In this document: positions 2,978 to 34,616 of the stretch, piece by piece | Layout of the letters: every line of letters begins with the position of its first letter | How positions within the stretch are numbered: the stretch's first letter is position 1 | Assembly: GCA_030640395.1 (NCBI GenBank) | Contig: DAOWJK010000011.1 | Location: 1 to 38,390, forward strand | DNA length: 38,390 nt | DNA from: Nanobdellota archaeon | GTDB lineage: Archaea > Nanobdellota > Nanobdellia > Pacearchaeales > GW2011-AR1 | Direction: 5' to 3' | Notes under the pieces: model-generated | Told to the model about the DNA's origin: nothing | Seen by the model: the letters and a program-made list of their open reading frames with translations, nothing else | The model's database searches: none | Position numbers and translations under genes: made by a program

Positions 2978-3478
2978 ATGAAAAAAATCCTTTGTGAAAA
3001 ACTTCCAAGAATAATAAAAAACAAAAAGCAACTTGAAAAGCTTTTAAATGTGAAAATAAAAAACAGAGGCAAAGAAGTTTCTATTGAGGGAAAGCCAGAA
3101 GATGAATACACTGCGGAAAAAGTAATTGATGCTTTGAATTTTGGATTTGCTTTTTCCAGTGCAATCCAGATAAAAGAACAAGACTGCACTTTTGAAATTC
3201 TAAACATAAAAGACCACACAAAAAGAAAAGACCTTGAAACAGTCAGGGCAAGAATAATCGGAACAAAAGGAAAAACCCTGCAAACCCTGCATCAATTAAC
3301 AAAGTGTTATTTTGAATTAAAAGACAACTTCGTGGGAATTATCGGCGAACCAGAATGCATCAAAAATGCACAAGACGCAATTATTTTAATAATTAAAGGT
3401 TCAAAGCAATCAAATGTTTACAATCTCTTAGAAAGACATCAGGTGAAAGAACCTGTTGATTTGGGGTTAAGAAAGTAA
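2978..3478 (+). CDS. KH-domain RNA-binding protein (Krr1/Pno1-like RNA-processing protein)
   Basis: 166 aa. KH GxxG-type motif in ARIIGTKGKTLQTLHQLT, with a second KH-like half upstream. The position next to translation factor genes is typical. Confidence 0.65.
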   Translation: MKKILCEKLPRIIKNKKQLEKLLNVKIKNRGKEVSIEGKPEDEYTAEKVIDALNFGFAFSSAIQIKEQDCTFEILNIKDHTKRKDLETVRARIIGTKGKTLQTLHQLTKCYFELKDNFVGIIGEPECIKNAQDAIILIIKGSKQSNVYNLLERHQVKEPVDLGLRK

Positions 3479-4681: not shown

Positions 4682-5761
4682 CTATCTTATAAATTCTATG
4701 CCTAAATCAGATATTTCCTTTGCCATAGGAAGTGATTGCTCTTCAGCAGTTCTTCCCAGGACATAAGGTGACTTGACTCCTGTCATGATAGTTATCACCC
4801 GCACTTTGCCGACAAAGTCCTTGCTGATTCTCGCACCAATAATAACCTGCGCCTCAGGACTCAGGTTCTCAGAAACCACTCGCCCAATCAAATCAAATTC
4901 CTCAAGCTTCAGGTCCTGACCGCATGTCACATGTATCAAAGCTCCGGTAGCACCCTGATAATCCACATCAAGTAGAGGATGAGTCAAGGCTTGCTTTACA
5001 GCTTCTGTTACACGACCTTCAGTATCTGATTCACCAATTCCAATCACAGCAACACCACCACCTTTCATAATAGCCGAAACATCTGCGTAGTCCAGATTAA
5101 TCAAACTCGGTAAAGTAATTGTCTCAACAATTCCCTTAATCATTGTGCTGGTTAATTCATTGGCAACAGCAAACGCCTGTTCAATAGGCAACTGCCCGGC
5201 AATATCAACAAGCCTGTTATTATCAAGAACTATGCACGTGTCTGTCACGTCTCTCAGTTCCTGCAAACCAAACTCTGCCTTGTCAATTCTCGCTTTCTCT
5301 GCTTCAAACGGCATTGTCACAACAGCAATCACAACTGCGCCAGTCTCTTTTGCCAACTGCGCAATTACCGGCGCTGCACCAGTACCGGTTCCACCACCCA
5401 TACCAGCGACGACAAATACCATGTCTGCCTGTCCAACAGCTTTCTTAATATCCACAATCGCTTCTTTAGCTGCTTCTCTTCCTCTTCTGGCATCTCCGCC
5501 TGCACCCAAGCCTCTTGTCAATTCCTTGCCAATAAGAAGTTTCTCATCAGACTTTGTAACACTTAAATGAAGCGCGTCAGTATTTGCTGCATAAATTGTT
5601 GCTCCACTAACACCTTTGTTGAAAAGCCATGTTACCATATTTGAGCCGCATCCTCCAACACCAAGAACCTTTATGTTCGCCTTCCCTGCTCTTAACTCAT
5701 CAAAATTAATGCTGTGCGAATTTGTATTGTCGATTGCTTCTTTTGCAAAATCTAACACCAT
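4682..5761 (-). CDS. ftsZ: cell division protein FtsZ
   Basis: 359 aa. Tubulin signature GGGTGTGAAPVIA, GVGGCGSN and NTD..L motifs. AAGGAGGT lies upstream of the ATG. Confidence 0.95.
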   Translation of the reverse strand: MVLDFAKEAIDNTNSHSINFDELRAGKANIKVLGVGGCGSNMVTWLFNKGVSGATIYAANTDALHLSVTKSDEKLLIGKELTRGLGAGGDARRGREAAKEAIVDIKKAVGQADMVFVVAGMGGGTGTGAAPVIAQLAKETGAVVIAVVTMPFEAEKARIDKAEFGLQELRDVTDTCIVLDNNRLVDIAGQLPIEQAFAVANELTSTMIKGIVETITLPSLINLDYADVSAIMKGGGVAVIGIGESDTEGRVTEAVKQALTHPLLDVDYQGATGALIHVTCGQDLKLEEFDLIGRVVSENLSPEAQVIIGARISKDFVGKVRVITIMTGVKSPYVLGRTAEEQSLPMAKEISDLGIEFIR

Positions 5762-5790
5762 ATTTTTTTTTACCTCCTTGTAATTTTATG

Positions 5791-5811
5791 AAACTTTTCT
5801 ACGAAAAGTTT
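5791..5811. promoter_or_regulatory. perfect 9-bp inverted repeat between a TATA-like box and the ftsZ ribosome-binding site
   Basis: AAACTTTTC-TAC-GAAAAGTTT at 5791-5811. In ftsZ sense it directly follows CTATTTAAAC and precedes AAGGAGGT. Confidence 0.35.
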
Positions 5812-5967
5812 AAATAGTTGACAAACTTCCAACTATTATTAAAAGAAAAAGAGGAAGAAATCACCTCTGCATACAGAAATATTAATTAAACCGCCAAGTT
5901 AAAATTAATATAATAAAAAATTAAGAATTCTCTTATTTAAATATATTTTGGTGATAAAACACAATAA

Positions 5968-8562
5968 TTAATCTTTTGTTTTTGCTAATGATTTTCTTTT
6001 TCTCAAGGTTACAAATGTCCCTACCCCCACTAATCCAAGAATAAATATACCTACTATTAAAGATAATCTTTCTTTAATTGTTCCTATTACTGCACCAGTA
6101 ATTCCTACTGAATTTGTTTTAGGGATGTCCTCTGTTGTTGGGGTACTTGTTTCATTTGTATCAAGCCCTATTTTTGTTTGATTTTGATTTAGAGTTTCAT
6201 TTGTTTGACTATTATTTATAGTCTCCTTCGGAGTATAGCTTCCGCCGCCTCCTCCAGAACTTCCGCCAGTATCAGAAGGCGGTACCGGACATACTCCACA
6301 ATCTTTTGTGCAAGAAGAACAAGTTTCTCCACCATTACAATTTCCATCCCCGCAATATGTTTCCTGCTCTTTTATTCCAGAATGTTTTAATCCAGAAATT
6401 TTATATTGAGTATTGTTGTTTACTAATTCACAAACATAATTTGTATTTGAACTGGGACAACTTAACCATGTTTCATTTTCGCCTGTGCATGTTTCAGAAA
6501 TTTCACTAATATTTAAAATTTCAGCGTCTTTAATGCAAATTCCTGTCCCATTAAGCACTTTATTAAAGTAAATTGTTTTTGTTTGATTTTGAGAAGTTAA
6601 ATCCAATCCTTTAATTATTAAATAAGAAAAAGTGCTTTCATTGTTTTGTTTTTCTATAAATAAATCAGCGAGGTTTATTTTTCCTTCTGTTAAATTAAAA
6701 TCAAACTCTAACAAAGTTTCATTATTTTCTTTAAACTTAATTGTGTTATTTTCTTTTTCTAAAGTTAAATTTGTTAAGGTAGTATTGATATTAGTTTCAT
6801 TTCCCATAATTCCGTCCTTATTATAATCGCATAGTTCATACTGAAATTCAAAATATGTATTGTTATTCCATAAATCTAACTCGAGATTGGTTAAGGCATA
6901 ACAAATATTAAAATCATATTCTATTTTGGTTCTGTTTTGTAATTGGGAATCATTTTCTAAGCAAATTCCTTGATTTTGCCATCCACTCCAAGAAGAGTTT
7001 GTTATGTTAGGTAGACAATAATCACATACCCCAACATTTCTATATTCAATAATTGTTTTGTTATTTATTTCCCCACAATAATTGTTATCATATTGAATTA
7101 AATTTCTTGTTTGATTCATTGTATCATTTAATGAACAAGAAATATTATTCCAAGAGTCCCAAGAAGTATTAACTAAATTTGGTGTGCAAAAGTCACAAAA
7201 TTGTGGCTCAAATTCTAAGTAATTCCCCTCGTATAAATCAGAATTTAAACTTGTTTGAGCAAAACAATTATTTTTATCGTAAGTTTGGTTGCAATATTTA
7301 AAATCCTCTTCTTGACAATTTCCATAATCAACACATGTCCAGTTTGGTAAACAATAATCACAACTTTCATATGTTCCGTTATCAACAGGCAAACTATATG
7401 TTTTATTACAATCATTAACATCTGTGTAAGTTATTAAAACTAAATCATCTTGCTGACAAGAGTTTTCATTGTTTATCCAATTTGGCATGCAATCACAAAC
7501 ATCTCCAATCCCATTATTATCTAAATCTTCTTGACTTGGATTTTGATTATAAGGACAATTATCTATGGCATCATCAATCCCATCATTATCTATATCTGTA
7601 TTTGTAACAACATAACTCTCATCTAAGAAGAATTCTCCAATTAAAGTTGGGTCCCAATTCCAATAATCTAAAACATTCTCACTATAATCTATTCTAAAAA
7701 ATCCTGACTCCCCCCAACCAGTACCCCAACTATTTTTACAAATCCAATATTGGTTATTGTCATCATAACCTATGATAGAAACAGCGTGGAGACCTAAGTA
7801 ATCTCCATAAGCCCATTGATATATCCCAATAGAATAATCATAAAAATCTTCATAAACAGCCATATAAATAGTTACAGGTCCATAATCATTTATTGCTTGT
7901 TTTATTGTAGAGGGTGAACTCACTAGATTATAGTCAAGGATTTTTACTAATTCATTTTGCCAATTAACACATTTGTTTGAACACAATCCATCAGTTCCAG
8001 AATAAGGAAAACAAGATTCTTTTACTACACCATTTGTTTTAATATAGTCAAAAGTATCATCAGACCACCCCCCATTACAATCTCCTGCCTCACTACAAGA
8101 AACTAAATCTTGCTCTGATAAATCTATATTATAATCAGGATTATTTAAAGCAATATTAATTCTTGATTCTACAACACCAACTGCTGAAAAAGCCCAACAA
8201 CTTCCACAACTACCTTGAGATTTTATGGGGGTAGTCCAATCGCCACCATCTTTATTTCTCCAATCTATTGTAGAAGGATAACTTCCGATAAAATTAGTTT
8301 TTAAAAGTTTAGTTTCTTCACTTGACTTAGATCTTGTTTGTAATAATAATGCTTTTTTCTCTTCTAAAGATAAATAAGACATACTTGTTTCTCCAGCAGT
8401 CCACTCTTTACTTTCAGATTTTATTATCTTATTAATGTTGTTTATTCTATCTTCTACAAACAAGTTTGACGACTTAATAGAATCTTTTTTTATATCAAAA
8501 GTATTTGCTGAAATAATTGAGACAATAACTATGATTAAAACAAGGGAAATTAATTTTTTCAT
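5968..8562 (-). CDS. secreted, C-terminally membrane-anchored papain-like (C1 family) cysteine protease with Cys-rich repeat stalk
   Basis: 864 aa. Signal peptide, then catalytic motifs QGSCGSCWAFSAVG (Cys), HAVSIIGYD (His), NSWGTGWGESG (Asn/Trp). Calcium-binding thrombospondin-type-3-like DIDNDGIDDAIDNCPYNQNPSQEDLDNNGIGDVCD. Four CD[YFC]C.PN modules, many N-x-S/T sequons, a GGSSGGGGGS linker and a C-terminal TM helix plus RKRK. Confidence 0.8.
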   Translation of the reverse strand: MKKLISLVLIIVIVSIISANTFDIKKDSIKSSNLFVEDRINNINKIIKSESKEWTAGETSMSYLSLEEKKALLLQTRSKSSEETKLLKTNFIGSYPSTIDWRNKDGGDWTTPIKSQGSCGSCWAFSAVGVVESRINIALNNPDYNIDLSEQDLVSCSEAGDCNGGWSDDTFDYIKTNGVVKESCFPYSGTDGLCSNKCVNWQNELVKILDYNLVSSPSTIKQAINDYGPVTIYMAVYEDFYDYSIGIYQWAYGDYLGLHAVSIIGYDDNNQYWICKNSWGTGWGESGFFRIDYSENVLDYWNWDPTLIGEFFLDESYVVTNTDIDNDGIDDAIDNCPYNQNPSQEDLDNNGIGDVCDCMPNWINNENSCQQDDLVLITYTDVNDCNKTYSLPVDNGTYESCDYCLPNWTCVDYGNCQEEDFKYCNQTYDKNNCFAQTSLNSDLYEGNYLEFEPQFCDFCTPNLVNTSWDSWNNISCSLNDTMNQTRNLIQYDNNYCGEINNKTIIEYRNVGVCDYCLPNITNSSWSGWQNQGICLENDSQLQNRTKIEYDFNICYALTNLELDLWNNNTYFEFQYELCDYNKDGIMGNETNINTTLTNLTLEKENNTIKFKENNETLLEFDFNLTEGKINLADLFIEKQNNESTFSYLIIKGLDLTSQNQTKTIYFNKVLNGTGICIKDAEILNISEISETCTGENETWLSCPSSNTNYVCELVNNNTQYKISGLKHSGIKEQETYCGDGNCNGGETCSSCTKDCGVCPVPPSDTGGSSGGGGGSYTPKETINNSQTNETLNQNQTKIGLDTNETSTPTTEDIPKTNSVGITGAVIGTIKERLSLIVGIFILGLVGVGTFVTLRKRKSLAKTKD

Positions 8563-8921: not shown

Positions 8922-9083
8922 ATGAGGGTTCGTTATGTCAATATTTCAATAACAGAAGATTTAGCTAAAAAAATAGATGAGTATGTTAAAAAAGCAAAAC
9001 AGGGTTATCGCTCAAGAGCAGAATTTATTTCTGAATCTATTAGATTAAGATTGGGAATTATCAAGAGCAAAAAGAAATCTTAA
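8922..9083 (+). CDS. ribbon-helix-helix (CopG/Arc-type) DNA-binding protein
   Basis: Missing from the track (53 aa). Hand translation: MRVRYVNISITEDLAKKIDEYVKKAKQGYRSRAEFISESIRLRLGIIKSKKKS. The beta strand (V.ISI), helix, RS.AEFI..SIR pattern is classic RHH. Confidence 0.6.
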   Translation: MRVRYVNISITEDLAKKIDEYVKKAKQGYRSRAEFISESIRLRLGIIKSKKKS

Positions 9084-9697
9084 ATCTTCTCCTTCAACTT
9101 CCCAATCTTCCTCCAACTCTTCTTCAACTTCTTATTACTTTCTTTAACAATTATCTTCAAAAATTTATCATCAACTAGAATTTTATTTTTTTCAATAATT
9201 GGAAACTCTAATTTTTCTGTACTATTCAATTCAGCAACAAATCTATTTCTCGTCGCTATTATCCCGGACCTCTTCCAACCAGCCAACTTTGCTTTATTTA
9301 AAAAAGATTGAGCATCATCCAAACTATCACAAGCAACATGTAAAATACAAGGTTCAGATTTAAATTTTATGCCCTTAGTAAACATTTTCTGGGAAAATGT
9401 TTCGGGGTACACACGAAGTGTGTTTATTCTTTTTTCCTTTTTAACAATCTCATTCAAATCCTTTTTCAACTTATTAAAACTAATCATCTCATGATAAACT
9501 TTCAAAAACAAACCTTTTTCTTTTTTATCCTGATTAATCATTAAAACAATCCTTCCAGAACACGAAGAAGTCGTGTAAAAATTCTCAAGAGAATTTATCT
9601 TCTTACATAAAGAAATTATTTTTTCATCCCATTTCTTTTTAGAAGATTTATCTAATTTAGAAAGAATAGATTTTTTTCGTTGAAGGAAATTATTCAT
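9080..9697 (-). CDS. taw3: tRNA wybutosine/wyosine-synthesizing protein 3 (Taw3/TYW3 methyltransferase)
   Basis: 205 aa. N-terminal F..RK..IL..LD.S.K...DE.I..L...IN....FYTTSSCSGRI is the TYW3 signature. Carries an in-frame element copy. Confidence 0.75.
   Translation of the reverse strand: MNNFLQRKKSILSKLDKSSKKKWDEKIISLCKKINSLENFYTTSSCSGRIVLMINQDKKEKGLFLKVYHEMISFNKLKKDLNEIVKKEKRINTLRVYPETFSQKMFTKGIKFKSEPCILHVACDSLDDAQSFLNKAKLAGWKRSGIIATRNRFVAELNSTEKLEFPIIEKNKILVDDKFLKIIVKESNKKLKKSWRKIGKLKEKI
9370..9423 (-). repeat. in-frame two-hairpin element, copy 1 (in taw3)
   Basis: + strand: TGCCCTTAGT-AAACATTTT-ctggg-AAAATGTTT-CGGGGTAC-ACACAC-gaa-GTGTGT. Stems at 9380-9388/9394-9402 and 9409-9414/9418-9423. 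Translated as NTLRVYPETFSQKMFTKG. Confidence 0.75.
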
Positions 9698-11990: not shown

Positions 11991-12707
11991 CTATTCTTTC
12001 TCCAAAATTTTACAATTAATATTTTCTTCTTCACACAACTCACAAAATTCCCTGGCATCATCCTCGCTTCCAACAATACTCCCCCAGTGCATTGGAATCG
12101 CCAAATCAGGTTTAATCAACTTCGCAGCCTCAACAGCTTCCTCTGCACTCATTGTGAACCTGCCCCCAATAGGCAGCAAAGCAACCAATTTCCTGCCCTG
12201 CTGTTTATAACCTGTAAGCTTTTGCATCTCAGGAATAACATCTGTGTCCCCTGCATGATAAATAAGAACACTATTTATTTTTATGAGATATCCTACCCAA
12301 CCCTCTTCCTTAGGATGAAAATGCTTGTCAATATTATACGCCGGCAAAACAGAAATCTTCGTGTTCCCAAAAACCAACTCATGCCCTGGCTCAACAACCT
12401 CCAGCTTAATCAGCACATCAAACCGCACAATCTTGCTCTGGCAATCAGCAGTCAAAAAAATTTTTGTCCCTTCTTTAATAATTTTCTTAATGTCAGCAAC
12501 ACTGCAATGGTCATAATGGCTGTGAGTTATTAAAATCAAATCTGCCTTCTCAGAATCATCTTTGATATTATAAGGGTCAATATAAATCACCTTGCCCTTA
12601 GTAGAAATCTTCATAGAAGATTTATCGGGGTACGCCTGTGGTGTTGAATTCTTGATCAAAAATCCTGCATGCCCTAACCATTTAAGTTCAATATCATTTA
12701 TTTTCAT
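11991..12707 (-). CDS. metallo-beta-lactamase fold hydrolase (UPF0173-like)
   Basis: 238 aa. LKWLGHAGFLI, ITHSHYDH (HxHxDH) and IPMHWG motifs. Carries an in-frame element copy near the N-terminus. Confidence 0.8.
   Translation of the reverse strand: MKINDIELKWLGHAGFLIKNSTPQAYPDKSSMKISTKGKVIYIDPYNIKDDSEKADLILITHSHYDHCSVADIKKIIKEGTKIFLTADCQSKIVRFDVLIKLEVVEPGHELVFGNTKISVLPAYNIDKHFHPKEEGWVGYLIKINSVLIYHAGDTDVIPEMQKLTGYKQQGRKLVALLPIGGRFTMSAEEAVEAAKLIKPDLAIPMHWGSIVGSEDDAREFCELCEEENINCKILEKE
12592..12645 (-). repeat. in-frame two-hairpin element, copy 2 (in MBL hydrolase)
   Basis: + strand: TTGCCCTTAGTAG-AAATCTTC-atag-GAAGATTT-ATCGGGGTAC-GCC-tgt-GGTGT. Inner stem at 12605-12612/12617-12624. Translated as STPQAYPDKSSMKISTKG, inserted between LIKN and KVIYIDP. 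Confidence 0.7.
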
Positions 12708-12798: not shown

Positions 12799-13083
12799 AT
12801 GAAATCACTTGAAGATTTTAAGATAGAGTGTCCAGCATCATGGAAAGGGTTTGGACCAGGATGGAGGACAGTAGCAGTTATTTATTTTTTTGATAATGAT
12901 GGGAGAGGTTTAAGTAAGAAAGAGTTAAGTGAAAAAATAGAATTAAATGACGATGAATTAAAGAGAGGATTAGGAGCGATGCAACAAACAAATGAAATAT
13001 TATTTAGAGAAAATGCCACTGGAAGAAGATATTATTTAGAACCTAAAACAAGAGAAGCATTTAAAGGACTTTATAATCTTTAA
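12799..13083 (+). CDS. hypothetical protein
   Basis: 94-aa ORF; possibly winged-helix-like. No firm motif. Confidence 0.35.
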   Translation: MKSLEDFKIECPASWKGFGPGWRTVAVIYFFDNDGRGLSKKELSEKIELNDDELKRGLGAMQQTNEILFRENATGRRYYLEPKTREAFKGLYNL

Positions 13084-13112
13084 TTATTCAAGACTATTTT
13101 TTTCCCACTCAG

Positions 13113-13778: not shown

Positions 13779-13927
13779 ATAAATTTTTAATTTATAAATC
13801 TTTTTACTCAGGGGCTCTGTTAAAAAAGTTCTTAGAGAAAAGTAAATAATCCCTGAAAACCACTCTTTAAAACTAAAAAAAGAAAAACTAAAAAAATCTT
13901 TGATAAAAAAACATTTATAATCTTTAA

Positions 13928-14428
13928 TTATTCAAAACTATTTTTTTCCCACTCCCCCATCTTCCCAGTTTTCAACTTTTTATCCAAAATCTCCAACTCT
14001 TCATAAATCCCTTCAATCAGCTCATAATTTTTTGCCTCTTCCAAACTAACCCATTTATATTCTGTTAAGGCGTGGCAAAGTTTAACATCTTCCCCAACTG
14101 GCTCTGCCCACAAACTAATTATTAACGAAGGAATATTATCTGAACGAATATAAACCAAACTCGTAACATAATTAAGATTTTTAATCTCCAATCCAACTTC
14201 TTCCATGACCTCTCTTTTGCTCAAATCCTCTAAAACATTATACCAGTGAGAAGAAGTGTCTTTTTCCCTTAAAGCATAATCCAAAACTTCCAACTTGCCC
14301 CCAGGCACAGTCCATTTTCCAGGAAATGCTTTTTCATAATCCGCCCTTTTCGCAATTAAAAATTTTCCGTCCTTAACTAAAATCACAGTAGAAGTAATAT
14401 AATGTGCTTGATTTTTATCGTATTTCAT
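13928..14428 (-). CDS. NUDIX hydrolase
   Basis: 166 aa. Nudix box elements GGKLE ... REVMEEVGLEI, with a longer than usual spacer between the GG and RE parts. Confidence 0.7.
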   Translation of the reverse strand: MKYDKNQAHYITSTVILVKDGKFLIAKRADYEKAFPGKWTVPGGKLEVLDYALREKDTSSHWYNVLEDLSKREVMEEVGLEIKNLNYVTSLVYIRSDNIPSLIISLWAEPVGEDVKLCHALTEYKWVSLEEAKNYELIEGIYEELEILDKKLKTGKMGEWEKNSFE

Positions 14429-14469: not shown

Positions 14470-15879
14470 TTACTGCAACTTCTCAACTGCCTTCGCAATC
14501 CTCAACATCTTTTCATCTTCAAACTTGTCACAAGCAACCTGCATCCCAACAGGAATTCCATCAATCTTTCCAATCGGCAAACTCAGCGCACAATTCCCAT
14601 ACAAATTATAAGGAATAGTTAAAGCATCATAAGCATACATATCCTCAACAGAAATACTCTCGCCAATCTTATGCGGCAGCTTCGGACAAACAGGAGAAAT
14701 AATGCAATCAACCTTTTCAAAAGCTTTTGCCAACTCTTTAGAAAAAAACTCCTTTGCAATCAAAGACTTATGATAATATCTTCCATGATGCTCTGCCTTG
14801 GAAATTTCACTCCCTCCTAAAATTCTTCTCATAACTTCTGGACCGCAAGCATCCTCAATTTTCTTCCCATACCTCCTGCCATCCAGTCTCCGGGTTGCAG
14901 AAAAAAACTCAACATAAACCAAAGGATAATAAGTCGCAACAGCCAACTCAAAATTAGAAATCTTTATCTTCCTAATCTCCCACCCATATTTTTCGCTGGC
15001 TTTTTTAATTCTCTCCCCAATCAAATCATCAATTCTCTTATCCCGAGACTCAAAATCCAAAACACCAACAACTAACTTCCTAGGAACTTTATTCAAGTTC
15101 TTCAAATCAATTTTCTTGCCCCGTAATGCAGCCTCGTCAGAGGTTCTCGTGCCCTCTTTGGGTATACTTTGGGGTACACCAGGCGGTGTGCTTTCCTGAG
15201 AAATAGAATCTTTCTCATCTTTGCCATAAATCACACTTAACAACAAACCAGCATCTAAAACATTTTTTGCAATAGGTCCAATCTGATCTAAACTCATAGA
15301 AAGATCAATTAAACCATAACGAGAAACAGATGAATAAGTTGGCTTCACTCCAACAACTCCGCAGTGCGACGCAGGATTTCTTATGCTCCCTCCAGTGTCA
15401 GAACCCAAAGCCATGTCGCAAAAACCCGCAGCCACAGCAGCCACACTACCCGACGACGAACCTCCAGGAACAAAACCAAAAGCAGCAGGATTTTTCGTCG
15501 CACCAAAAGCACTTGTCTCACCAGAACTCCCGCACGCAAACTCATCACAATTTGCCATTCCCAAAATAATCCCTCCCTGGTCTTTAATCTTCTTAATCAC
15601 AGTTGCATCATAACCTGCCTTATAATTCTCCAAAACTTTAGAACCACACGAAGCATGCAAACCCTTAACATTAATATTTGCCTTCACAGCAATAACTTTC
15701 CCGGCAAGTTTTGCCCCAGCATTCAGTACTTTGGGGTACACCGAGCGGTGCCCAGATTTATTTTTTTTCGCTTCTTGCAAAGCATTTGGATTCATTTCTA
15801 AAATCGCATTTATTTTTTTCCCTTTTTTATTATTTGCTTCAATTTCTTTCAAGTAGTTTTTTAGTTTTTCTGTGTTCAT
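14470..15879 (-). CDS. gatA: Asp-tRNA(Asn)/Glu-tRNA(Gln) amidotransferase subunit A
   Basis: 469 aa. Amidase signature GGSSSGSVAAVAAG...GSDTGGSIRNPASHCGVVGVKPTY..VSRYGLI...SLDQIGP. Carries two in-frame element copies. Confidence 0.9.
   Translation of the reverse strand: MNTEKLKNYLKEIEANNKKGKKINAILEMNPNALQEAKKNKSGHRSVYPKVLNAGAKLAGKVIAVKANINVKGLHASCGSKVLENYKAGYDATVIKKIKDQGGIILGMANCDEFACGSSGETSAFGATKNPAAFGFVPGGSSSGSVAAVAAGFCDMALGSDTGGSIRNPASHCGVVGVKPTYSSVSRYGLIDLSMSLDQIGPIAKNVLDAGLLLSVIYGKDEKDSISQESTPPGVPQSIPKEGTRTSDEAALRGKKIDLKNLNKVPRKLVVGVLDFESRDKRIDDLIGERIKKASEKYGWEIRKIKISNFELAVATYYPLVYVEFFSATRRLDGRRYGKKIEDACGPEVMRRILGGSEISKAEHHGRYYHKSLIAKEFFSKELAKAFEKVDCIISPVCPKLPHKIGESISVEDMYAYDALTIPYNLYGNCALSLPIGKIDGIPVGMQVACDKFEDEKMLRIAKAVEKLQ
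15116..15191 (-). repeat. in-frame two-hairpin element, copy 3 (gatA, long variant with nested extra hairpin)
   Basis: + strand: TTGCCCCGTAAT-[GCAGCCTCGTCAGAGGTTCTCGTGCCCTCTTTGGGTA]-TACTTTGGGGTACACC-aggc-GGTGTGC. The ends match copy 7 exactly; the bracketed stretch of about 36 nt is extra. Translated as STPPGVPQSIPKEGTRTSDEAALRGK. Confidence 0.75.
15711..15752 (-). repeat. in-frame two-hairpin element, copy 4 (gatA N-terminal region)
   Basis: + strand: TTGCCCCAGCATTCAGTACTTTGGGGTACACC-gagc-GGTGCC. 22/24 identity to the 24-mer core of copies 3 and 7. Read in a different frame: GHRSVYPKVLNAG. Confidence 0.7.
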
Positions 15880-16298
15880 TTTCTTATTTTTTGGAGAGGA
15901 AGTAATTTCCTCTTATTATTCTCTCTGATTTTTCTTGCTTCCAAAGCTTTAATCCAATCTGCTTCATTTTCTAAAAATTTAACCATAGAATCTCTTGTTT
16001 TTGTTCTGACAACAATAATTATTTTTAATTTCCCAAAAAATATATCAACATCAAATTTCCCGTTTTGGTAATGTCTTATACAATCTTCAAAATCCGCAAC
16101 CTTTAACTCTACCTGAATAAAATTTCCTTTTTTGTCTTCACACTCCTCAAAAAAAATACTCTTAACTTTCTCAGGATTAAATCCCAAATGCCCCATAAAC
16201 TTTACAAAACTCTCTTTAAAGCCTTCATTTTTTTTCACACTATATCTATGCCTAAATCCATCATTATCTGTTCCAGTTAAAATTAATTTCTTTTTCAT
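15876..16298 (-). CDS. hypothetical protein
   Basis: 140-aa ORF. Its stop overlaps the gatA start and its start overlaps the upstream ORF stop (4-nt ATGA-type overlaps), implying an operon. Confidence 0.5.
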   Translation of the reverse strand: MKKKLILTGTDNDGFRHRYSVKKNEGFKESFVKFMGHLGFNPEKVKSIFFEECEDKKGNFIQVELKVADFEDCIRHYQNGKFDVDIFFGKLKIIIVVRTKTRDSMVKFLENEADWIKALEARKIRENNKRKLLPLQKIRK

Positions 16299-21560: not shown

Positions 21561-23036
21561 TCATTCCAAAAACCTCTTTATAATCCCCATCGCCTCTCTC
21601 CCATCAACTTTCCCGGCAAACTTCTTCATTACCAATCCCATGTAAGCTTTCTCAGAAAGCCCGGGCTTGCCCTTGATAATTTTCATGATTTTTTCCTCAA
21701 CATTTCCTAAATCTGCTTTTTCAAACTTGACCGCACTGCTAACATCAACTCCCCTGGCAATTCTCTCTAAACTTTCCTTTATCTGCCTCTCGCTAATTTT
21801 CCCTTTTTTATATTTCTCCAAAACAAATGCAAGAATATCTTTGTTGCCCTCTATGTTTATATCTCCTTTCATAGAGGGTACACCCTTGGGTGCTGAAATA
21901 TTTTTAATCTTCCGCGCAATCTCTTTCGGAAATATCAAAACCACTTTCGCAATTAATTTTGGGTTGCTCACAATCTCCAGCAACTCCCTAAACTCCCCAA
22001 GTTTATTCATTTTGAAAATCAACTTTATCATCTCATGATTTAATCCCTTGCTGCTCAGTTCCTCTTCAATATCTTTTCTCAATCTGGGAAGATTCTTCTT
22101 AACTTTATTAATTAAATCTCTGGAAATCCTCAGCATCGGTAAATCAGTTTCAGGATACATCCTCGCTGAACCAGGCAGAGGTCTCAAAAAACTCGTGGTT
22201 GTGTCAGGATTTCCTCTCCGAACTTCTGCAACAGACTTTTTCTTTTTAACTAAATCAACCTGCCTTTCAATTTCGTTATTAATCGTAGGAACAATTAATT
22301 TTAAATTCTGAACACCTTTCATCTCAATTCTCTTCCCATTCTTAATAGAAATACTAACATCCTGCCGAATCGTGCCAATTCCCCGACGAACTCTGCAACT
22401 TCTCAAAATCTCCCCAATCTTCAGGCTGACATTCCTGGCCTGTTCAGGAGTTTTAATATCCGGAGCAGTCACAATTTCAACAAGAGGAATCCCCAACCTG
22501 TCCAGCCGATAAATTGTTTCGTCATCTTTTCGCTCCACAATCCTCGCAGCATCTTCCTCAAGAATCACGGCATTAATTCCAACTCTTCCTTCATCTGTCT
22601 CAACATAGCCATCCTGCGCAATTAAAACAGTCCTCTGAAAACCCGAAGTATTTGAACCATCAATAACAGTTTTTCTCATAATTTGTGTTATCGGAACAAT
22701 CTTGCAATTCAGCAAAAGCGAAATCTGCAAGGCAATCTCCAGCGCATCCTTATTTATCTCATGCGGCGGCTCCTCATCCAACTCAACAAGACAAGTTGTA
22801 TCATACCCCTGATAAACAAATTGCTTATCTTTTCCCATCTCATGTTTCGCCGCAACATCAACCTCTCCAGACTCTCCTGCAACAGCATGAAGTTTTCTCC
22901 TCACAATAAAATCAGGCTCGTCTTTCCTTAACAGCGACAGACAATTACAAAATAATTTTTTAGTGTCAAGTTGCTGATGAATCTCAAGCCCGCATTTAAA
23001 TCCTAATTTTTCGTAATCTAATTTTTCTTTTGACAT
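21561..23036 (-). CDS. gatE: Glu-tRNA(Gln) amidotransferase subunit E
   Basis: 491 aa. N-terminus LGFKCGLEIHQQLDTKKLFCNC, plus VDGSNTSGFQRT and RQDVSISI motifs of GatE. Shorter than typical GatE. Carries an in-frame element copy. Confidence 0.85.
   Translation of the reverse strand: MSKEKLDYEKLGFKCGLEIHQQLDTKKLFCNCLSLLRKDEPDFIVRRKLHAVAGESGEVDVAAKHEMGKDKQFVYQGYDTTCLVELDEEPPHEINKDALEIALQISLLLNCKIVPITQIMRKTVIDGSNTSGFQRTVLIAQDGYVETDEGRVGINAVILEEDAARIVERKDDETIYRLDRLGIPLVEIVTAPDIKTPEQARNVSLKIGEILRSCRVRRGIGTIRQDVSISIKNGKRIEMKGVQNLKLIVPTINNEIERQVDLVKKKKSVAEVRRGNPDTTTSFLRPLPGSARMYPETDLPMLRISRDLINKVKKNLPRLRKDIEEELSSKGLNHEMIKLIFKMNKLGEFRELLEIVSNPKLIAKVVLIFPKEIARKIKNISAPKGVPSMKGDINIEGNKDILAFVLEKYKKGKISERQIKESLERIARGVDVSSAVKFEKADLGNVEEKIMKIIKGKPGLSEKAYMGLVMKKFAGKVDGREAMGIIKRFLE
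21844..21893 (-). repeat. in-frame two-hairpin element, copy 5 (in gatE)
   Basis: + strand: TTG-CCCTCTATG-tttatatctccttt-CATAGAGGG-TACACCC-tt-GGGTGC. 9-bp stem at 21847-21855/21870-21878. 48/50 identical to copy 6. Translated as APKGVPSMKGDINIEGN. Confidence 0.8.
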
Positions 23037-26757: not shown

Positions 26758-28113
26758 ATGACAAAAATTGGATTAGAAATTCATGGTTATCTTTTAACAA
26801 ATGAAAAACTCTTCTGTGCTTGCAAATCAGAACACGGGCTAAAACATTCAAAACCGAACACAAATATCTGTGCTATTTGCACAGCCCAGCCAGGGGCAAA
26901 GCCAATGCTCCCAAATAAAACAGCCGTAAATAAAGTAATCCAAATTGCGTTAATTCTTGGATGCAAAATAAACGAAAAACTTGTATGGGCCAGGAAACAT
27001 TATGACTGGCCTGACCTGCCAAAAGGATATCAAAACACAATTTCTGGAGCTTATGCAATTCCTGTCGGAGAAAAAGGAAAATTTTTAGGAATACGAATTA
27101 CCGAGGCGCATCTTGAAGAAGACCCTGCAGCATGGAACCCAAAAACAGGGGAAATAGATTACAATCGTTCCGGAAGCCCTTTAATAGAAATTGTAACAGA
27201 ACCAGATTTTAAAAATTCCGAACAAGTAATTTCATGGCTAAAACAATTGCTCACAACTCTAAGTTACATAAAAGCCATTGACAAAAATCTGGGAATAAAA
27301 GCAGATGTAAATGTCTCTGTTTCAGGAGGAGCAAGAATTGAGATTAAAAACATAAACAGTCTGAAAAACATCAAAACAGCAATTGAATATGAGCTCCAAA
27401 AACAAAAAAAACAGCTTCCTAAAGTTCAGGAAACAAAAATGTTTGATGAAAGCAAAGCCATTACAATAAAAATGCGTTCAAAAGAACAAGCCCAGGATTA
27501 CAGATTTATTTCAGACCCGGACTTGCCGATAATAAAAATTGAAAAATCAAGAGTAGAAAAAATAAAATCTGCTTTGCCCGAAACTCCGTCAGAAAAACTA
27601 AAAAAGATTGTTAAAAAATATAAAATAGAAAAAACTTCAGCAGAAACTTTAACAAAAAAATTAGAAATTGTGGAGTTCTTTGAAAAAATAATTGAAAAAG
27701 CAAATCCAAAACTTGCAGTTCGTTGGGTAACTGAAGAACTTCTTAGTGTCCTGAATTACAACAAAAAAGAATTAGAAGATGTTGAAATAAAACCAGAACA
27801 TTTTATTGAATTGCTCAAACTTATAGAAGATAAAACAATTACAGAACTAAAAGCAAAAGATATTTTACGAAGCTGGAAAGAGAAATCACTTTCCCCAAAA
27901 CAAGAAATAAAAAAATTTTCTCAAATTTCAGACAAAAAAGAAATTCAAAAACTTGCTCAAAAAGTTATTAAAGAAAATTCAAAAGCAGTTGAAGATTACA
28001 AGTCAGGGAAAAAACAATCTTTGAATTTCTTAATTGGACAGGTAATGAGAGCAAGTGATAAGAGGGCTGATTTTGAAATGGCGAGAGATGTTTTGGTTAA
28101 AGAATTGGAATAA
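26758..28113 (+). CDS. gatB: Asp-tRNA(Asn)/Glu-tRNA(Gln) amidotransferase subunit B
   Basis: 451 aa. GLEIHGYL, PNTNICAICTAQPGAKP, EAHLEEDP and NRSG.PLIEIVTEPD motifs of GatB. C-terminal YqeY-like tail (LIGQVM). Confidence 0.9.
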   Translation: MTKIGLEIHGYLLTNEKLFCACKSEHGLKHSKPNTNICAICTAQPGAKPMLPNKTAVNKVIQIALILGCKINEKLVWARKHYDWPDLPKGYQNTISGAYAIPVGEKGKFLGIRITEAHLEEDPAAWNPKTGEIDYNRSGSPLIEIVTEPDFKNSEQVISWLKQLLTTLSYIKAIDKNLGIKADVNVSVSGGARIEIKNINSLKNIKTAIEYELQKQKKQLPKVQETKMFDESKAITIKMRSKEQAQDYRFISDPDLPIIKIEKSRVEKIKSALPETPSEKLKKIVKKYKIEKTSAETLTKKLEIVEFFEKIIEKANPKLAVRWVTEELLSVLNYNKKELEDVEIKPEHFIELLKLIEDKTITELKAKDILRSWKEKSLSPKQEIKKFSQISDKKEIQKLAQKVIKENSKAVEDYKSGKKQSLNFLIGQVMRASDKRADFEMARDVLVKELE

Positions 28114-28268: not shown

Positions 28269-29252
28269 TTAATTAGCAGTGCATTGACAATCTTGATAAC
28301 TATCAGACTTGGCTGATCCAATTAGCCCTGCAGGGCCCATACTCGCAGTACCGCAAATCAGAGATTCTTCGCACGAATTTACATATTTTGTAAAATGTTG
28401 TGTTTTAAAACAAATTACACCATATTCATTCCAAATAGTACGATATTGCCCGCCCGGAGATGTAAATTCGCCAAATGGTCCTGACATAGAATACCAATCA
28501 GTGCTACAAGCACCATAATGATGTGATACATAATTTATTCTCGCGTAGTATTGTCCATTTTCAAATTTTCCACTAAATGATCCTGACACAGGATATGAAC
28601 CCGCTCCTATACAAGAACAACTTATTATGCATGGTTGAATATTACAACTCTGCGACTCTGTAGAAGAGCCAGAGCAAGTTGCTCCCCCGCATTCTGGAGC
28701 AGGATTTGTACAGGTTCTTGTTCTTGTTTGAGTTCCACCGCCACACGAAACAGAACAAGCACTCCAGCCAGACCATGCACTCCATCCTCCATCTACAGGA
28801 ACACAACCAAACTCCCCTCCATTAATTGCATCTTGTAAACTCATTTCAGAACCGTCTACAGAAATTAAAATCTCGTCTGCACTATGCCCAAAAACTATAT
28901 TAGAATTATATGAGGATGAAACACTTCCGTATAACGAAGAATCAATTGCCTGTTGCAAATTCATCTCATTGCCATTAACAGAAACATAAATATCATTTCC
29001 AGTATGATAAGCTCCTGAAATTTCTGTTGTGTAGTCCTGTGTTGGAGATGGAGCACCCTCAACAAGAAAACCATTATCTATTGCCTCCTGCAAAGTCATT
29101 GTAAAACCATCTACAGAAACCAAAACAGCGTCGCATCCATGCCCGGGATTTGGAATTTGTTGAGTATATTCATATGCAATAATAATGCCCACTATTAACA
29201 AAACTACCGCTATTGAAATAAAAATTATTTTATTAGAAAATTTATTCACCAT
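28269..29252 (-). CDS. secreted protein with three short tandem repeats and one thrombospondin type 1 (TSP1/TSR) repeat
   Basis: 327 aa. N-terminal TM/signal segment. Three VS(V)DG.(E)M.LQ.AI repeats. Then [52 protein letters not shown], the canonical WSxW...CSxxCGxGxxxRxRxC TSR pattern. Visibly higher G+C than its neighbours. Confidence 0.7.
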
Positions 29253-32407: not shown

Positions 32408-33541
32408 TCATAATCCCTTTTTGCCCTCTATGTTTATATCTCCTCTCATAGAGGGTACATCCTTGGGTGCCCTCTTCCCAACCAACTCAACAAACCTCTC
32501 CTTAAATTTCTCCAAATCCTTAACCTTGACTCTAACACCAACAGCCCTCTCATGCCCCCCGCCAGTCGCCCCTTCCAAATCCTTAATCACTTCCAAAACA
32601 ATTTCCCTGACATTATCTCCTCTGACAGAAATATTCACCTTGTCTCCTGAAACATAAATCACAACAATAATCTTCCCAGGAAATTCATACCTCAGCCCAT
32701 TTGACAAATCAGAACTAATGCTCAGCTCTCCTCCATACTGAAAAAACAAAACCCCCCCCTCATTTTTCTGGGACTTCGCCTTCTCCAGCAATTTTTCATA
32801 TTTCTCATTTATCTCTTTAAATTTTTTATACATAGTCTGGTTATATTTGCTCTCTTCCAAAACCTCATAAGGCGTCCTGACCTTCATCAAAAACTTCAAC
32901 ATATTTACCACATTAGTTGTTCTGTCTTTTAATCCCGCATTAAAAATTCTCCCAATCTTCCCTATCTGAGATTTAAAATAAATCTCTTTAACATTTTTAG
33001 AATCAATAATCAAGTCAGGATATTTTTCTTTAAACTCAAAATAAAAATCAGGAACAAAATGATCAGAAATGCACCCAACAACTGCTATCCACAAATCCTG
33101 TTTTCTGTTAGTTATCTGATAACACAAAGCTGTAACAGGTTCATTTGTTTTCTCTTTATTTAACAGAGGATTATAATAATTAACAAAATCAGGAATATCG
33201 CTATTCTCATGATGGTCAATCCACACCACCGGAAGATTAACCTGCCGAACCTCTTTCAAAAATTCCTCAGAAACAACATGCCTGTCCAAAATAAAAATAT
33301 AATCTGCATTTAGTTCCATGACTTTTTTAAAATAATTTCCCGCGTCCGCAGACTTCATCGCAACACCTTTTCCCCTTCCAATATATCTCTGCAGCAAAAG
33401 AAAACTACAAAGCCCGTCCCCGTCATTATCAAAAAAGAAAATCGGATTCTGTGCTTTTTCCAAATGCTCCTGAACTTCTAAAATTTGTTTTTGAGTTAGC
33501 ATTTTAATTAAAAGCAAATGTGATTTAAAAACCTTCAACAA
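32408..33541 (-). CDS. DHH/DHHA1 family phosphoesterase (RecJ-like)
   Basis: 377 aa. DNDGDG, IFILD, WIDHH and GGGHERAVG motifs. The last 20 or so residues are encoded by an element copy. Confidence 0.75.
   Translation of the reverse strand: MLKVFKSHLLLIKMLTQKQILEVQEHLEKAQNPIFFFDNDGDGLCSFLLLQRYIGRGKGVAMKSADAGNYFKKVMELNADYIFILDRHVVSEEFLKEVRQVNLPVVWIDHHENSDIPDFVNYYNPLLNKEKTNEPVTALCYQITNRKQDLWIAVVGCISDHFVPDFYFEFKEKYPDLIIDSKNVKEIYFKSQIGKIGRIFNAGLKDRTTNVVNMLKFLMKVRTPYEVLEESKYNQTMYKKFKEINEKYEKLLEKAKSQKNEGGVLFFQYGGELSISSDLSNGLRYEFPGKIIVVIYVSGDKVNISVRGDNVREIVLEVIKDLEGATGGGHERAVGVRVKVKDLEKFKERFVELVGKRAPKDVPSMRGDINIEGKKGL
32421..32470 (-). repeat. in-frame two-hairpin element, copy 6 (forms the C-terminus of the DHH protein)
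   Basis: + strand: TTG-CCCTCTATG-tttatatctcctct-CATAGAGGG-TACATCC-tt-GGGTGC. Stem at 32424-32432/32447-32455. Translated as APKDVPSMRGDINIEGK, followed only by KGL and the stop codon. Confidence 0.8.
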
Positions 33542-34616
33542 CTTCAGTTCCTAATTTCTTATATCCAAAAAAATCAGTTGTATAATTATAAGCCCCGGCA
33601 TTTAAAAAAACAATTTTATCCCCAACTTTTGGATTTTGCAATTTCACCTTATATCTAAAAATATCATCCCGCGTCGGGGAGTTTCCTTTAATTAAATAAA
33701 ATTTCCTGCCCCGTAATTCCGTACTTTGGGGTACACCAGGCGGTGCTGATTCATCATCCTCAAACTCTCCTTCAATAAGCATTTTTGTGCCAGTTAAAAT
33801 AGTGTCCAACGCACAATTATAAATCGTGGTATTAATCACAATATTGTTTTCCTGAATCTGAATAATTTCTGTCTTAAGTTTTATGCAAGGTGCAGCAAAA
33901 AATCTCCCTGGTTCAATATATGTTTCAATATTATATTCCTTTAAAAATTCTTTTGCATTTGTTATTTTTTTAAAAATATAAACCAGCACTTCTGAAACAT
34001 AACTCCGATATTTCGTCGGAAGCCCACCACCAATATTCAAAAAATCAATCCTCTCCAAACTTTCTTTTGTCAAAGAATCTTCTAACTCTTCTTTAATTTC
34101 CCACTCACTCGTATTTTGCGACTTTCTATGAATATGAACTCCAAGCTTTTCAATAAAAACATTATCTTTAATCCTCGCTATTATCTCGTTTATTTTTTTT
34201 GAAGCCATACCATAAACAAAATATTTCCCAGAACCAATCCTATGCTCCTGAAATTTCATTCTCAAAGAAAGATTAATTTTTATTTTTTCTTCTTCAATCA
34301 CATTCAAAACTCTCTCCAAATCAACTTCATTATCAACAACAAAATTTTTTATTCCCTTTTTTAAAATTTCTTTTAATTCTTCTTCTGGCTCTGCCTGAGT
34401 AAAAAACCAAATCCTTGACTTATCCTTAATCATATCTATTTCCTCTTTGGCATGAATTGAAAAATCACAATCAGAAATTTCCTGCAAAACATTTCCAACT
34501 TCCCTGTTGGTTTTATAAGAGTAAGAAATTTTTAATCCAAGATTTTTTAGAGTTTTTACTTGTTCTAAGAGTTTGGATTTTGAGAGGATGAATTTAGCTT
34601 CCATAACAAAAAACAA
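33525..34616 (-). CDS. type III PLP-dependent decarboxylase (Orn/DAP/Arg decarboxylase family 2)
   Basis: 363 aa. The PLP-lysine context SYSYKTN (compare YA.KAN) and NIGGGLP motifs. Overlaps the DHH gene start by 17 nt. Carries an in-frame element copy. Confidence 0.7.
   Translation of the reverse strand: MFFVMEAKFILSKSKLLEQVKTLKNLGLKISYSYKTNREVGNVLQEISDCDFSIHAKEEIDMIKDKSRIWFFTQAEPEEELKEILKKGIKNFVVDNEVDLERVLNVIEEEKIKINLSLRMKFQEHRIGSGKYFVYGMASKKINEIIARIKDNVFIEKLGVHIHRKSQNTSEWEIKEELEDSLTKESLERIDFLNIGGGLPTKYRSYVSEVLVYIFKKITNAKEFLKEYNIETYIEPGRFFAAPCIKLKTEIIQIQENNIVINTTIYNCALDTILTGTKMLIEGEFEDDESAPPGVPQSTELRGRKFYLIKGNSPTRDDIFRYKVKLQNPKVGDKIVFLNAGAYNYTTDFFGYKKLGTEVVEGF
33707..33746 (-). repeat. in-frame two-hairpin element, copy 7 (in PLP decarboxylase)
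   Basis: + strand: TGCCCC-GTA-attccg-TAC-ttt-GGGG-TACACC-aggc-GGTGC. The 24-mer at 33722-33745 is identical to 15165-15188. Translated as APPGVPQSTELRG. Confidence 0.8.

Follow-up and report, generated by a model that had tools for sequence, protein, structure and literature searches.

Why should a short hairpin inside a protein-coding gene change its sequence from copy to copy and stay paired all the while? The question is raised by positions 9370-9423 of a 38,390-nucleotide (nt) stretch of DNA from a Nanobdellota archaeon (contig DAOWJK010000011.1; hereafter the window), where the Taw3 gene contains one of seven copies of a small element. The copies share one layout, a variable hairpin closed by CCC/GGG, then GTAC, then a short hairpin. 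All seven lie where a reading of the letters alone (hereafter the sequence-only reading) had placed them, with the element on the + strand and the host open reading frames (ORFs) on the minus strand. The hosts are six genes, encoding Taw3, a metallo-beta-lactamase-fold protein (MBL), GatA (two copies), GatE, a DHH phosphoesterase and a pyridoxal phosphate (PLP) decarboxylase. With a GC content of about 31 %, the window has archaeal genes, among them those for a GatD/E-type amidotransferase, Taw3, FtsZ and eIF-2 beta, and the nearest relatives of its genes bear the labels Pacearchaeota, Woesearchaeota or Nanoarchaeota. What the element conserves is its pairing and not the peptide it encodes, and the stem is probably part of a family of mobile DNA elements, miniature, hairpin-based and non-autonomous, of this DPANN clade. 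Loci and contigs compared with the window carry the prefix L.

Covariation of the variable stem

The sequence-only reading had asked whether the paired columns covary in larger alignments. They do so in two independent sets, in neither of which any of 500 shuffles reached the observed covariation score. The genome set was collected with a pattern that fixes only the conserved feet, GCCCTTAGTA-N15-27-TCGGGGTAC, and was scanned over one genome per species (185,579 species). Alignment A3, made of 34 ungapped 61-nt copies from DPANN genomes and scored against the proposed structure, has an upper helix that is 95.5 % paired, and six of its 11 pairs have changed on both sides. Pair 30-46 runs through all four Watson-Crick combinations (AU18, CG8, GC5, UA1), and further changes on both sides are seen in pairs 33-43 (CG16/UA16), 36-40 (CG16/UA7) and 29-47 (AU29/GC5). 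When the partner is slid by one to three columns, pairing falls from 90 % to 31-55 %. Alignment A4 consists of 20 metagenome copies chosen solely by the sequence of the other, short hairpin; it is 97 % paired with double changes in 6/10 pairs, and 1/500 shuffles reached each of two phylogeny-robust measures. By eye, B-type stems compensate likewise (CCCTCTATG/CATAGAGGG, CCCTCTGTG/CACAGAGGG, CCCTTTGTA/TACAAAGGG, CCCTCGGTG/CACCGAGGG).

The encoded peptides behave quite differently. The invariant GTACCC is read as V-P in four of the window copies and as Y-P in three, and 50 copies in long ORFs of related genomes divide into ..YP.. (24), ..VP.. (16) and ..TP.. (10), all three frames occurring even within the A-type. 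The resulting peptides are unrelated (..TPQAYPDKSSMKISTKG.., ..APKGVPRDISKEMSTKG.., ..TQGCTPKDFKKKSLLRA..; further examples are ..AYPDKSS..TKG, ..GVPRDIS..TKG and ..CTPKDFKKKSLLRA), and one predicted across the element reads ..AYPDKSSMKISTKG... The window MBL gene aligns without gaps to its L001 orthologue with 94 % nucleotide identity in the element and 81 % in the rest of the gene; third codon positions are identical at 17/17 sites within the element and at 136/222 outside. The element's three differences are all non-synonymous and either lie in loops or repair a mismatch. The proposal of a constraint on a self-pairing nucleic acid, and not on amino acids, is thus upheld by the use of three frames, the RNA-gene hosts described below, the frozen third positions and the covariation of the stem. 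A selected peptide motif common to many proteins, such as a flexible linker or a binding epitope, would fit peptides that are hydrophilic, rich in P, G and K, and placed in a loop. It is refuted by the use of all three frames, which yields unrelated peptides, and it is further contradicted by the copies in RNA genes and leaders and by synonymous sites that are frozen while amino acids change; we attach practically no credence to it.

It is likely, judging from the reading frames, that the elements are translated as disordered hydrophilic surface loops which the proteins tolerate. Read in sense, the inserts yield hydrophilic peptides with much P, G and K. The window Taw3, modelled with AlphaFold, has a mean predicted local confidence (pLDDT) of 84.7, with the insert residues 94-106 below 50 and devoid of secondary structure, so modelled as an unstructured loop joining helix H74-93 to strand E110-115. 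The GatA inserts lie outside the blocks alignable to solved structures. A permissive position was thus found in both host proteins checked, Taw3 and GatA. As a separate observation, columns 95-180 of the Taw3 alignment A1 (window residues ~88-109) show that other lineages have different, unrelated inserts there, 10-70 residues long (e.g., ..SLCSDIDDSDSG.. and ..HSRLKKSVNNKN..); this loop looks like a general insertion hot spot, perhaps for more element families.

Selection need not act on each resident copy, and the pairing of the stem can also be explained by other processes. The hairpin may have to be intact for mobilisation, one arm may serve as template for correction of the other, and copies may undergo gene conversion. 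The Taw3 copy of L001 retains the Taw3-specific short hairpin with one difference; its long stem is unlike that of the window Taw3 copy and identical to the stem of the L001 MBL copy. At least some of the "compensatory" differences between orthologues are therefore conversions and not stepwise double mutations.

Orientation and the folding strand

ORFs of 100 codons or more enclose 52 of the 65 genome-set copies, and in 52/52 cases the gene is on the strand opposite "TGCCC...GGGGTAC". A combined census of 170 distinct candidates places 117 clearly in ORFs in sense; the two apparent antisense cases, a 16S-leader copy under a spurious ORF and one atypical sequence, are both spurious. The ORF stays open through every clearly genic copy, whichever of the three frames is used. 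The sense orientation extends to copies at N-termini and to those that lie between co-directional genes, in RNase P RNA or in the 16S leader.

The non-coding hosts deserve a closer look. A-type copies are found in sense 10-12 nt upstream of the mature 16S rRNA 5' end, with differing compensated stems. This leader site is filled in seven contigs (L029, L033, L099, L116, L159, L179, L191) and empty in four related ones (L044, L048, L108, L162); in L033 a second element is nested in the loop of the first. Within RNase P RNA, A-type copies occupy, again in sense, the joiner that leads from the 3' strand of P2 to the conserved ACAGAA of P4. The three contigs concerned (L142 2691-2743; L175 minus strand ~3325-3376; L063 ~6424-6479 of the oriented strand) are related and each has a different compensated stem.

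Several causes of this rule can be considered. Stop codons cannot explain it, because about 1.9 of the 3 antisense frames are open, compared with about 2 of 3 in sense. Replication direction is contradicted by L028/L029, where the genic and the 16S-leader copies are on opposite strands, each in sense to its own transcript; the tally of copy pairs by strand (the same in 35, opposite in 4) does not decide this point, most of its weight coming from the window. The peptides of open antisense frames are more hydrophobic (mean hydropathy +0.28 vs -0.85 in sense), and selection could therefore contribute to the orientation or even remove antisense coding copies by itself. The non-coding cases, three or four independent events that are all in sense, lean towards a link with transcription, albeit with weak statistics.

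Such a link is the basis of one variant of the mobile-element explanation, in which the element enters transcripts, or single-stranded DNA of the transcription bubble, and is then fixed in the genome, the sense orientation being a by-product of insertion. This RNA-mediated or transcription-coupled mobility accounts for an orientation that tracks the transcription unit even in non-coding hosts, for the opposite-strand copies of L028/L029, and for targets that include the loops of other elements and the joining region of RNase P RNA. We nevertheless consider it rather unlikely: no reverse transcriptase or other candidate machinery was seen, the folding asymmetry described below points to the template strand and not to the strand exposed in the bubble, the hydrophobic antisense peptides would allow selection alone to remove antisense coding copies, and one intergenic variant is antisense. 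That variant, at ~16004-16050 (+) of L001 between the minus-strand genes for DUF5679 and eIF-2 beta, is the sole copy seen in antisense to its neighbours, and its stem is fully symmetric (TACCCTAAA-ttt-TTAGGGTA).

Which strand folds can be read from the mismatches. The long stem comprises 507 Watson-Crick pairs, 11 sense G.U, 19 sense A.C and 13 other mismatches, a pattern expected of a neutrally decaying DNA palindrome and not of an RNA under selection in one sense. For the short hairpin, sense A.C (G.T in antisense) outnumbers sense G.U by 27 to 5; the commonest version, ACACC-aca-GGCGT, has a sense A.C that is a G.T on the opposite strand and changes to GC, AU or CG. On the antisense strand only, the fold gains a T-A and a G.T pair from the invariant TG...TA feet. 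The sequence-only reading had held that wobble positions favour neither strand consistently. With more copies the asymmetry is not neutral: of 109 folded copies, 78 are more stable as the antisense strand and 29 less so, the mean gain being 1.4 kcal/mol (RNA parameters; same direction with DNA parameters); the copies are related, which makes p-values optimistic, and the direction is consistent. Its strand preferences for individual copies survive in part: copies 2 and 6 do fold better in antisense, while copies 4 and 5, thought to favour the mRNA sense, are ties and copy 7 is slightly antisense. When both strands are folded, copies 1, 2, 3 and 6 are clearly better in antisense.

Given the better folding of the antisense strand, a structure in the sense mRNA is not favoured, and of the three structures that had been offered (RNA, single-stranded DNA, cruciform DNA) it is the least likely. 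A functional structure in the sense transcript, be it mRNA, rRNA precursor or RNase P RNA, kept by host selection because it binds a protein, governs stability or processing or makes ribosomes pause, for example, has in its favour that the clearly genic, 16S-leader and RNase P copies are all in sense, that orthologous copies are more conserved than their host genes and that the stems covary. Against this, the sense strand folds worse in 78/109 copies, the commonest short hairpin is mismatched (A.C) in sense, 27 vs 5, and the G.U and A.C counts of the long stem (11 vs 19 in sense) look like neutral decay. Moreover, the host genes are unrelated and without common regulation, copies are placed according to permissive loops of the proteins, the element is missing from close relatives, and there is no Rfam match. 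Such a role is improbable.

Insertion, unit length and the case for mobility

Several observations favour mobility: the copies are dispersed over unrelated sites, are cleanly inserted and nest in loops, they combine conserved feet with a free stem, their lengths are multiples of three (3n), and they are in sense orientation. With respect to insertion, the closest Taw3 homologue, P0004, has a 19-residue gap in place of the insert, which is also missing from most of the 1,346 Taw3 homologues (~185-190 residues long); at copy 3, GatA has ~25 residues more than the solved GatA structures. A clean filled/empty pair is provided by L047 (TTGG[51 nt]AAAAAC) and L052 (TTGG|AAGAAT), a clean 51-nt empty site for window copy 2 by L100, and a clean minimal 30-nt insertion by L187 (filled) and L080 (empty). 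L125 has an independent insertion in the gene and loop that are hit in L047, 15 nt further downstream. No direct-repeat signal indicative of target-site duplication rose above permuted partners in 33 copies, and filled/empty junctions are clean.

Unit lengths were defined by conserved borders. Those of the window are 51, 48, 48, 39, 39 and 75 nt, the last being a 39-nt unit plus a nested insert of 33-36 nt, and an 18-nt unit, TACCCTRAAGGGCACGAG, recurs as a nested insert. All defined units (18, 30, 39, 48 and 51 nt) are 3n, and the host frame is never broken, owing to this length together with the lack of target duplication. In host-gene sense the anatomy is [short hairpin]-GTA-[CCC(C) ... variable stem-loop ... 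GGG(G)]-CA. The construction is modular: the partners of the 5' module CACC-caag-GGTG-TA are long A-type stems, B-type stems or minimal hairpins (CCCTC-taaa-GAGGG), and an alternative module, GCGAGAACCTGC-nnn-GCAGG, can take the place of this 5' module. Elements are nested within the apical loops of others in L033, L035, L079, L109, L120, L135 and window copy 3.

A few related forms were seen in addition. A (G)CGAGAACC-stem-loop module (e.g., CCTGC-aga-GCAGG) is either nested or replaces the GTAC-side hairpin, at window 15128-15160 (in copy 3) and in L027, L040, L051, L074, L090 and L101; L074 resembles a chimera in which an A-type half meets, head to head, a reversed half of this module type, the two having one stem in common. 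A possible further subfamily, [short hairpin]-GTACCCTCACAGATA...GGTTGGGGCA followed by GGC(T/C)CTACCTCCTGCCCAG, occurs in L041 (three copies), L105/L163 (~3060-3112), L185 and L119, where the copy is antisense to a 466-codon ORF. In three contigs (L051 ~5968, L082 ~706, L185 ~6994), ATGGTACCCAAAGGGCA (M-V-P-K-G) stands at an apparent ORF start, which amounts to a minimal GTACCC-aaa-GGGCA hairpin directly after the start codon.

Short structured inserts in archaeal tRNA-modification, tRNA-amidation, rRNA-leader and RNase P genes also bring to mind bulge-helix-bulge (BHB) introns that are removed from the RNA, and one 3-nt bulge (UAA) does adjoin the CCC/GGG helix. In the folds inspected, however, there is no second bulge 4 bp away, only a single 3' bulge or an internal loop. 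All units are 3n and no clearly genic copy breaks its host ORF; such preservation would be pointless if the inserts were spliced out. This origin appears very remote. Only slightly better placed, and still highly improbable, is an absence of present mobility, with ancient insertions or palindromes formed in place being homogenised by gene conversion and quasi-palindrome correction. Many copies are indeed orthologous across species (Taw3, MBL, GatA, 16S leader, RNase P), conversion between copies is in evidence and the stems are almost purely Watson-Crick, but lineage-specific filled and empty sites, independent hits in one loop, nested elements and near-identical copies in unrelated genes are difficult to reconcile with immobility.

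An enzyme acting in trans would mobilise the probable mobile element by recognising its folded single strand, with invariant TA/CCC...GGG/CA feet and a free stem sequence. The arms would then remain complementary since only intact hairpins propagate, helped by intrastrand templated correction and gene conversion between copies. On this mechanism, the compensatory changes would reflect a constraint on a folded DNA strand, more likely the one antisense to the gene, and neither a constraint on the peptide nor one on sense-mRNA structure. The leading, though unproven, candidate enzyme is an HUH/Y1 transposase (IS200/IS605- or RAYT-like); that it is specifically a Y1 transposase seems doubtful to us, the better folding of the antisense strand being the only, indirect hint of cleavage and transfer of one DNA strand. 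Y1_Tnp genes are present in two DPANN-like contigs, first detected with transposase sequences as probes and then verified with Pfam, and annotations for Pacearchaeota, Woesearchaeota and Nanoarchaeota include a large family of Y1_Tnp homologues. About 1 Mb of loci gave only two Y1_Tnp-bearing insertion sequence (IS) copies, whose ends are unlike the element except for the 7-nt TACCCCG.

Some resident transposons are worth recording in their own right. A 3.2-kb segment of L105 (minus strand, oriented 5140-8331), missing from the 99.95 %-identical contig L163, contains an IS605-type element (Y1 TnpA plus TnpB) in a hicA toxin gene and also an A-type mini-element directly after an ATG. A tnpA-only IS200 family is widespread in Pacearchaeota/Woesearchaeota contigs (L106 6780-7300, L192, L200, L201, L202). 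It has its own conserved ends, ATACCCCGCAGCTTGCTGCG at both, as well as a conserved hairpin, ATACCCCGCAGC-ttg-GCTGCG, at both ends; the L106 copy has H-V-Q at the usual position of the HUH motif, and many homologues lie on very short contigs.

A number of points weigh against mobility of the kind proposed. No autonomous partner or mobilising enzyme linked to the elements, and no element-flanked RAYT, was found in the loci searched. As autonomous parents, the L105 IS605 was rejected (its mapped ends are unrelated and it sits within hicA), as was the IS200 family, which has only the TACCCCG foot in common with the element; three 12-20-kb loci with this family (L200-L202) hold no mini-element. 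An absolute sense orientation is not predicted by known DNA transposition mechanisms. The GatE site is not clean (21 codons in the window vs 7 in L001), nor is the junction of L115 vs L055, and presence/absence polymorphism within populations was not found. Loss and gain are indistinguishable in single cases because the filled/empty pairs are relatives of 70-88 % identity. Length variants of 50-53 nt exist, with undefined exact borders, and the elements are presumed from ORF continuity to be translated. Finally, orthologous copies persist at ~63-85 % protein identity and are more conserved than their host genes, which could reflect host function rather than concerted evolution. The long-conserved copies (16S leader, RNase P, Taw3, MBL, GatA) may have gained a function.

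A more far-reaching possibility, which we put forward tentatively, is a "codon-quantised" class of mobile element specialised for expressed sequence. It would combine 3n units, no target duplication and benign sense peptides with strand-specific entry in the direction of transcription, via a transcription-coupled, RNA or single-stranded intermediate that prefers single-stranded loops, which may include the loops of its own kind and the joining regions of ribozymes. If so, ultra-small archaea would have a continuing supply of protein surface loops and RNA expansion segments.

Comparison with known systems and distribution

In functional terms, the closest known system is the Rickettsia palindromic element (RPE; Ogata et al. 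2000), as summarised in PMC10969869. RPEs are short palindromic selfish repeats found in frame in many unrelated Rickettsia housekeeping genes; they are translated, compatible with the fold of the host protein, fall into several families and have no known transposition mechanism. Each is described there as a ~100-150-bp repeat that encodes a conserved peptide (PMC10969869). Both are multicopy palindromes in frame within unrelated genes of a reduced genome. Unlike RPEs as described there, the present elements are archaeal, three to eight times shorter (18-51 nt), and read in three frames (24/16/10) with no one conserved peptide per family; they are also modular, loop-nested and strictly sense, and occur in RNase P RNA and the 16S leader as well.

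In mechanistic terms, other systems come to mind. The repetitive extragenic palindromes (REPs) with their REP-associated tyrosine transposases (RAYT; Y1/HUH) and the palindrome-associated transposable elements (PATEs) of IS200/IS605 have a hairpin with conserved feet, an adjacent tetranucleotide and no target-site duplication. The present hairpin likewise has conserved feet, an adjacent GTAC and a freely covarying stem; target-site duplication is lacking here too, the hairpin is sub-terminal and imperfect, the flank is one-sided (A-rich 3' in sense, i.e., YTT 5' on the antisense strand), and Y1_Tnp genes occur in the clade. However, REPs are extragenic, whereas the present copies are mostly inside ORFs, and unlike in PATE/RAYT systems the resident IS605/IS200 ends match no further than TACCCCG, and no RAYT flanked by the elements was found in the loci searched.

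[quoted passage not shown] The palindromic amphipathic repeat coding elements (PARCELs; PMC2996958) are likewise palindromic coding repeats within the proteins of microbes that have small genomes; they are intragenic, stand in tandem and specify a defined amphipathic peptide, in contrast to the present dispersed single insertions without a conserved peptide. Archaeal BHB introns resemble our elements as short structured inserts, found in RNA genes and protein genes of archaea, for which site-to-site transposition has been proposed; here, by contrast, the BHB motif is missing and the frame is preserved and read through. Membership of the REP, PATE, MITE and BHB-intron classes thus fails in each case on at least one defining feature.

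The family is restricted to DPANN archaea of the Pacearchaeota/Woesearchaeota type (labels also include Nanoarchaeota). Over the 185,579 species genomes, the A-type pattern returned 45 loci, 42 of them from ~20 DPANN metagenome-assembled genomes and the remaining three being bacterial chance matches without a stem. A metagenome scan gave at least 120 loci; among the matches listed, ~105 are low-GC and DPANN-like. A generic pattern run against the viral sequences of IMG/VR produced 22 matches, all structureless chance hits in unrelated GC contexts. In Rfam 15, searched in gathering and E-value modes, the element is unmatched; only tRNAs and one chance match (20 bits vs a gathering score of 45, E = 0.09) were returned. 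In the literature searched, which leaves out most subscription journals, such elements are undescribed in DPANN or any other archaeon, and the archaeal MITEs listed in a 2024 review are confined to Sulfolobus, Halobacterium, Haloquadratum and Desulfurococcus. A widespread family of codon-length hairpin elements in DPANN archaea has apparently escaped description so far.

If the interpretation as mobile elements is correct, they are the archaeal counterpart of RPEs, much smaller, modular and more extreme, and selfish DNA can colonise both the coding sequence and core RNAs (RNase P, pre-rRNA) of genomes that are among the smallest known. This would give a concrete origin to lineage-specific insertions in universal proteins of DPANN archaea. 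Since such insertions serve as phylogenetic markers, recurrent hits in one loop (L047/L125, the Taw3 hot spot) matter. Annotation, alignment and structure prediction in these lineages would have to reckon with 6-25-residue inserts that are no protein features, and the sense-only rule together with the 3n length makes the movement and tolerance of in-frame palindromic elements directly testable.

The seven window copies and minor observations

Copy 1 (A-type, 9371..9423, minus strand; covariance-model score 72 bits) lies in the Taw3/TYW3 gene (ORF 9080-9697). The + strand of 9370-9423 is TGCCC-ttagt-AAACATTTT-ctggg-AAAATGTTT-c-GGGG-TAC-ACACAC-gaa-GTGTGT; in sense it reads ACACAC-ttc-GTGTGT-A-CCCC-G-AAACATTTT-cccag-AAAATGTTT-ACTAA-GGGC and encodes ..NTLRVYPETFSQKMFTKG... 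The arms AAACATTTT/AAAATGTTT are at 9380-9388/9394-9402 and the short hairpin ACACAC-gaa-GTGTGT at 9409-9423, both as the sequence-only reading had them. Copy 2 (A-type, 51 nt, 12594..12644, minus strand, 77 bits) is in the MBL gene (ORF 11991-12707) and has the upper stem GAAGATTT/AAATCTTC. The arm AAATCTTC is correctly placed at 12605-12612 (+), while its partner GAAGATTT, across an ATA loop, is at 12616-12623, one position from where it had been put; the short hairpin ACGCC-tgt-GGTGT, with its G:T on the + strand, is present at 12632-12644.

Copy 3 (75 nt, 15118..15192, minus strand) corresponds to amino acids (aa) 230-254 of GatA (ORF 14470-15879) and is composite. By alignment, its outer element, a 39-nt C-type unit, matches copy 7 at both ends, and the loop holds the nested 33-36-nt insert TACCCAAAGAGGGCACGAGAACCTCTGACGAGG, seen again in L079, L109, L120 and L135. 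The stem described for this copy exists, but its "GTA/TAC" is GTATAC without a loop, the copy being composite with a nested element; its short hairpin ACACC-aggc-GGTGT is found as described at 15176-15189. Copy 4 (C-type, 39 nt, 15713..15751, minus strand) covers GatA aa 43-56 in the frame ..VYP.. and has an orthologue in L038.

Copy 5 (B-type, 48 nt, 21846..21893, minus strand; fold z-score -4.1) lies in GatE (ORF 21561-23036), with stem CCCTCTATG/CATAGAGGG and a 14-nt loop. Copy 6 (B-type, 48 nt, 32423..32470, minus strand) is at the C-terminus of the DHH/DHHA1 protein (ORF 32408-33541); the two are 94 % identical in unrelated host genes, and the arms CCCTCTATG/CATAGAGGG predicted for both are indeed at 21847/21870 and 32424/32447. 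Copy 7 (C-type, 39 nt, 33708..33746, minus strand) is in the PLP-dependent decarboxylase gene (ORF 33525-34616). A further short hairpin, given as CACCC-tt-GGGTG, has an impossible 2-nt loop in that form; the realistic fold is CACC-cttg-GGTG.

The core motifs are far commoner in the window than chance predicts, GGGTACNC with 6 occurrences (0.35 expected) and GCCC-N10-40-GGGTA with 9 (1.2 expected). A covariance-model scan of the window found no convincing further copy. A weak match (E = 0.05) at 9551-9600 stems from codons of the Taw3 YTTSSC motif, which form the hairpins ACACGA-agaag-TCGTGT and AAATTCT-caag-AGAATTT; without GTACCC or GGGCA feet, these are probably coincidental. Another (E = 0.5), at 26863-26900 (+) in a plus-strand gene, reads TGTGC-tatt-GCACA-G-CCC-agcca-GGG-GCA and may be a degenerate minimal copy in sense, or chance. 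Two 41-nt stretches at 13070-13110 and 13914-13954 are 98 % identical (TTTATAATCTTTAATTATTCAAGACTATTTTTTTCCCACTC); they adjoin the 3' ends of two minus-strand ORFs and are not related to the hairpin family. Lastly, three 65-nt repeats of 66-72 % identity, spaced by 120 and 135 nt at 28825-29144 within ORF 28269-29252, presumably represent an internal protein repeat.

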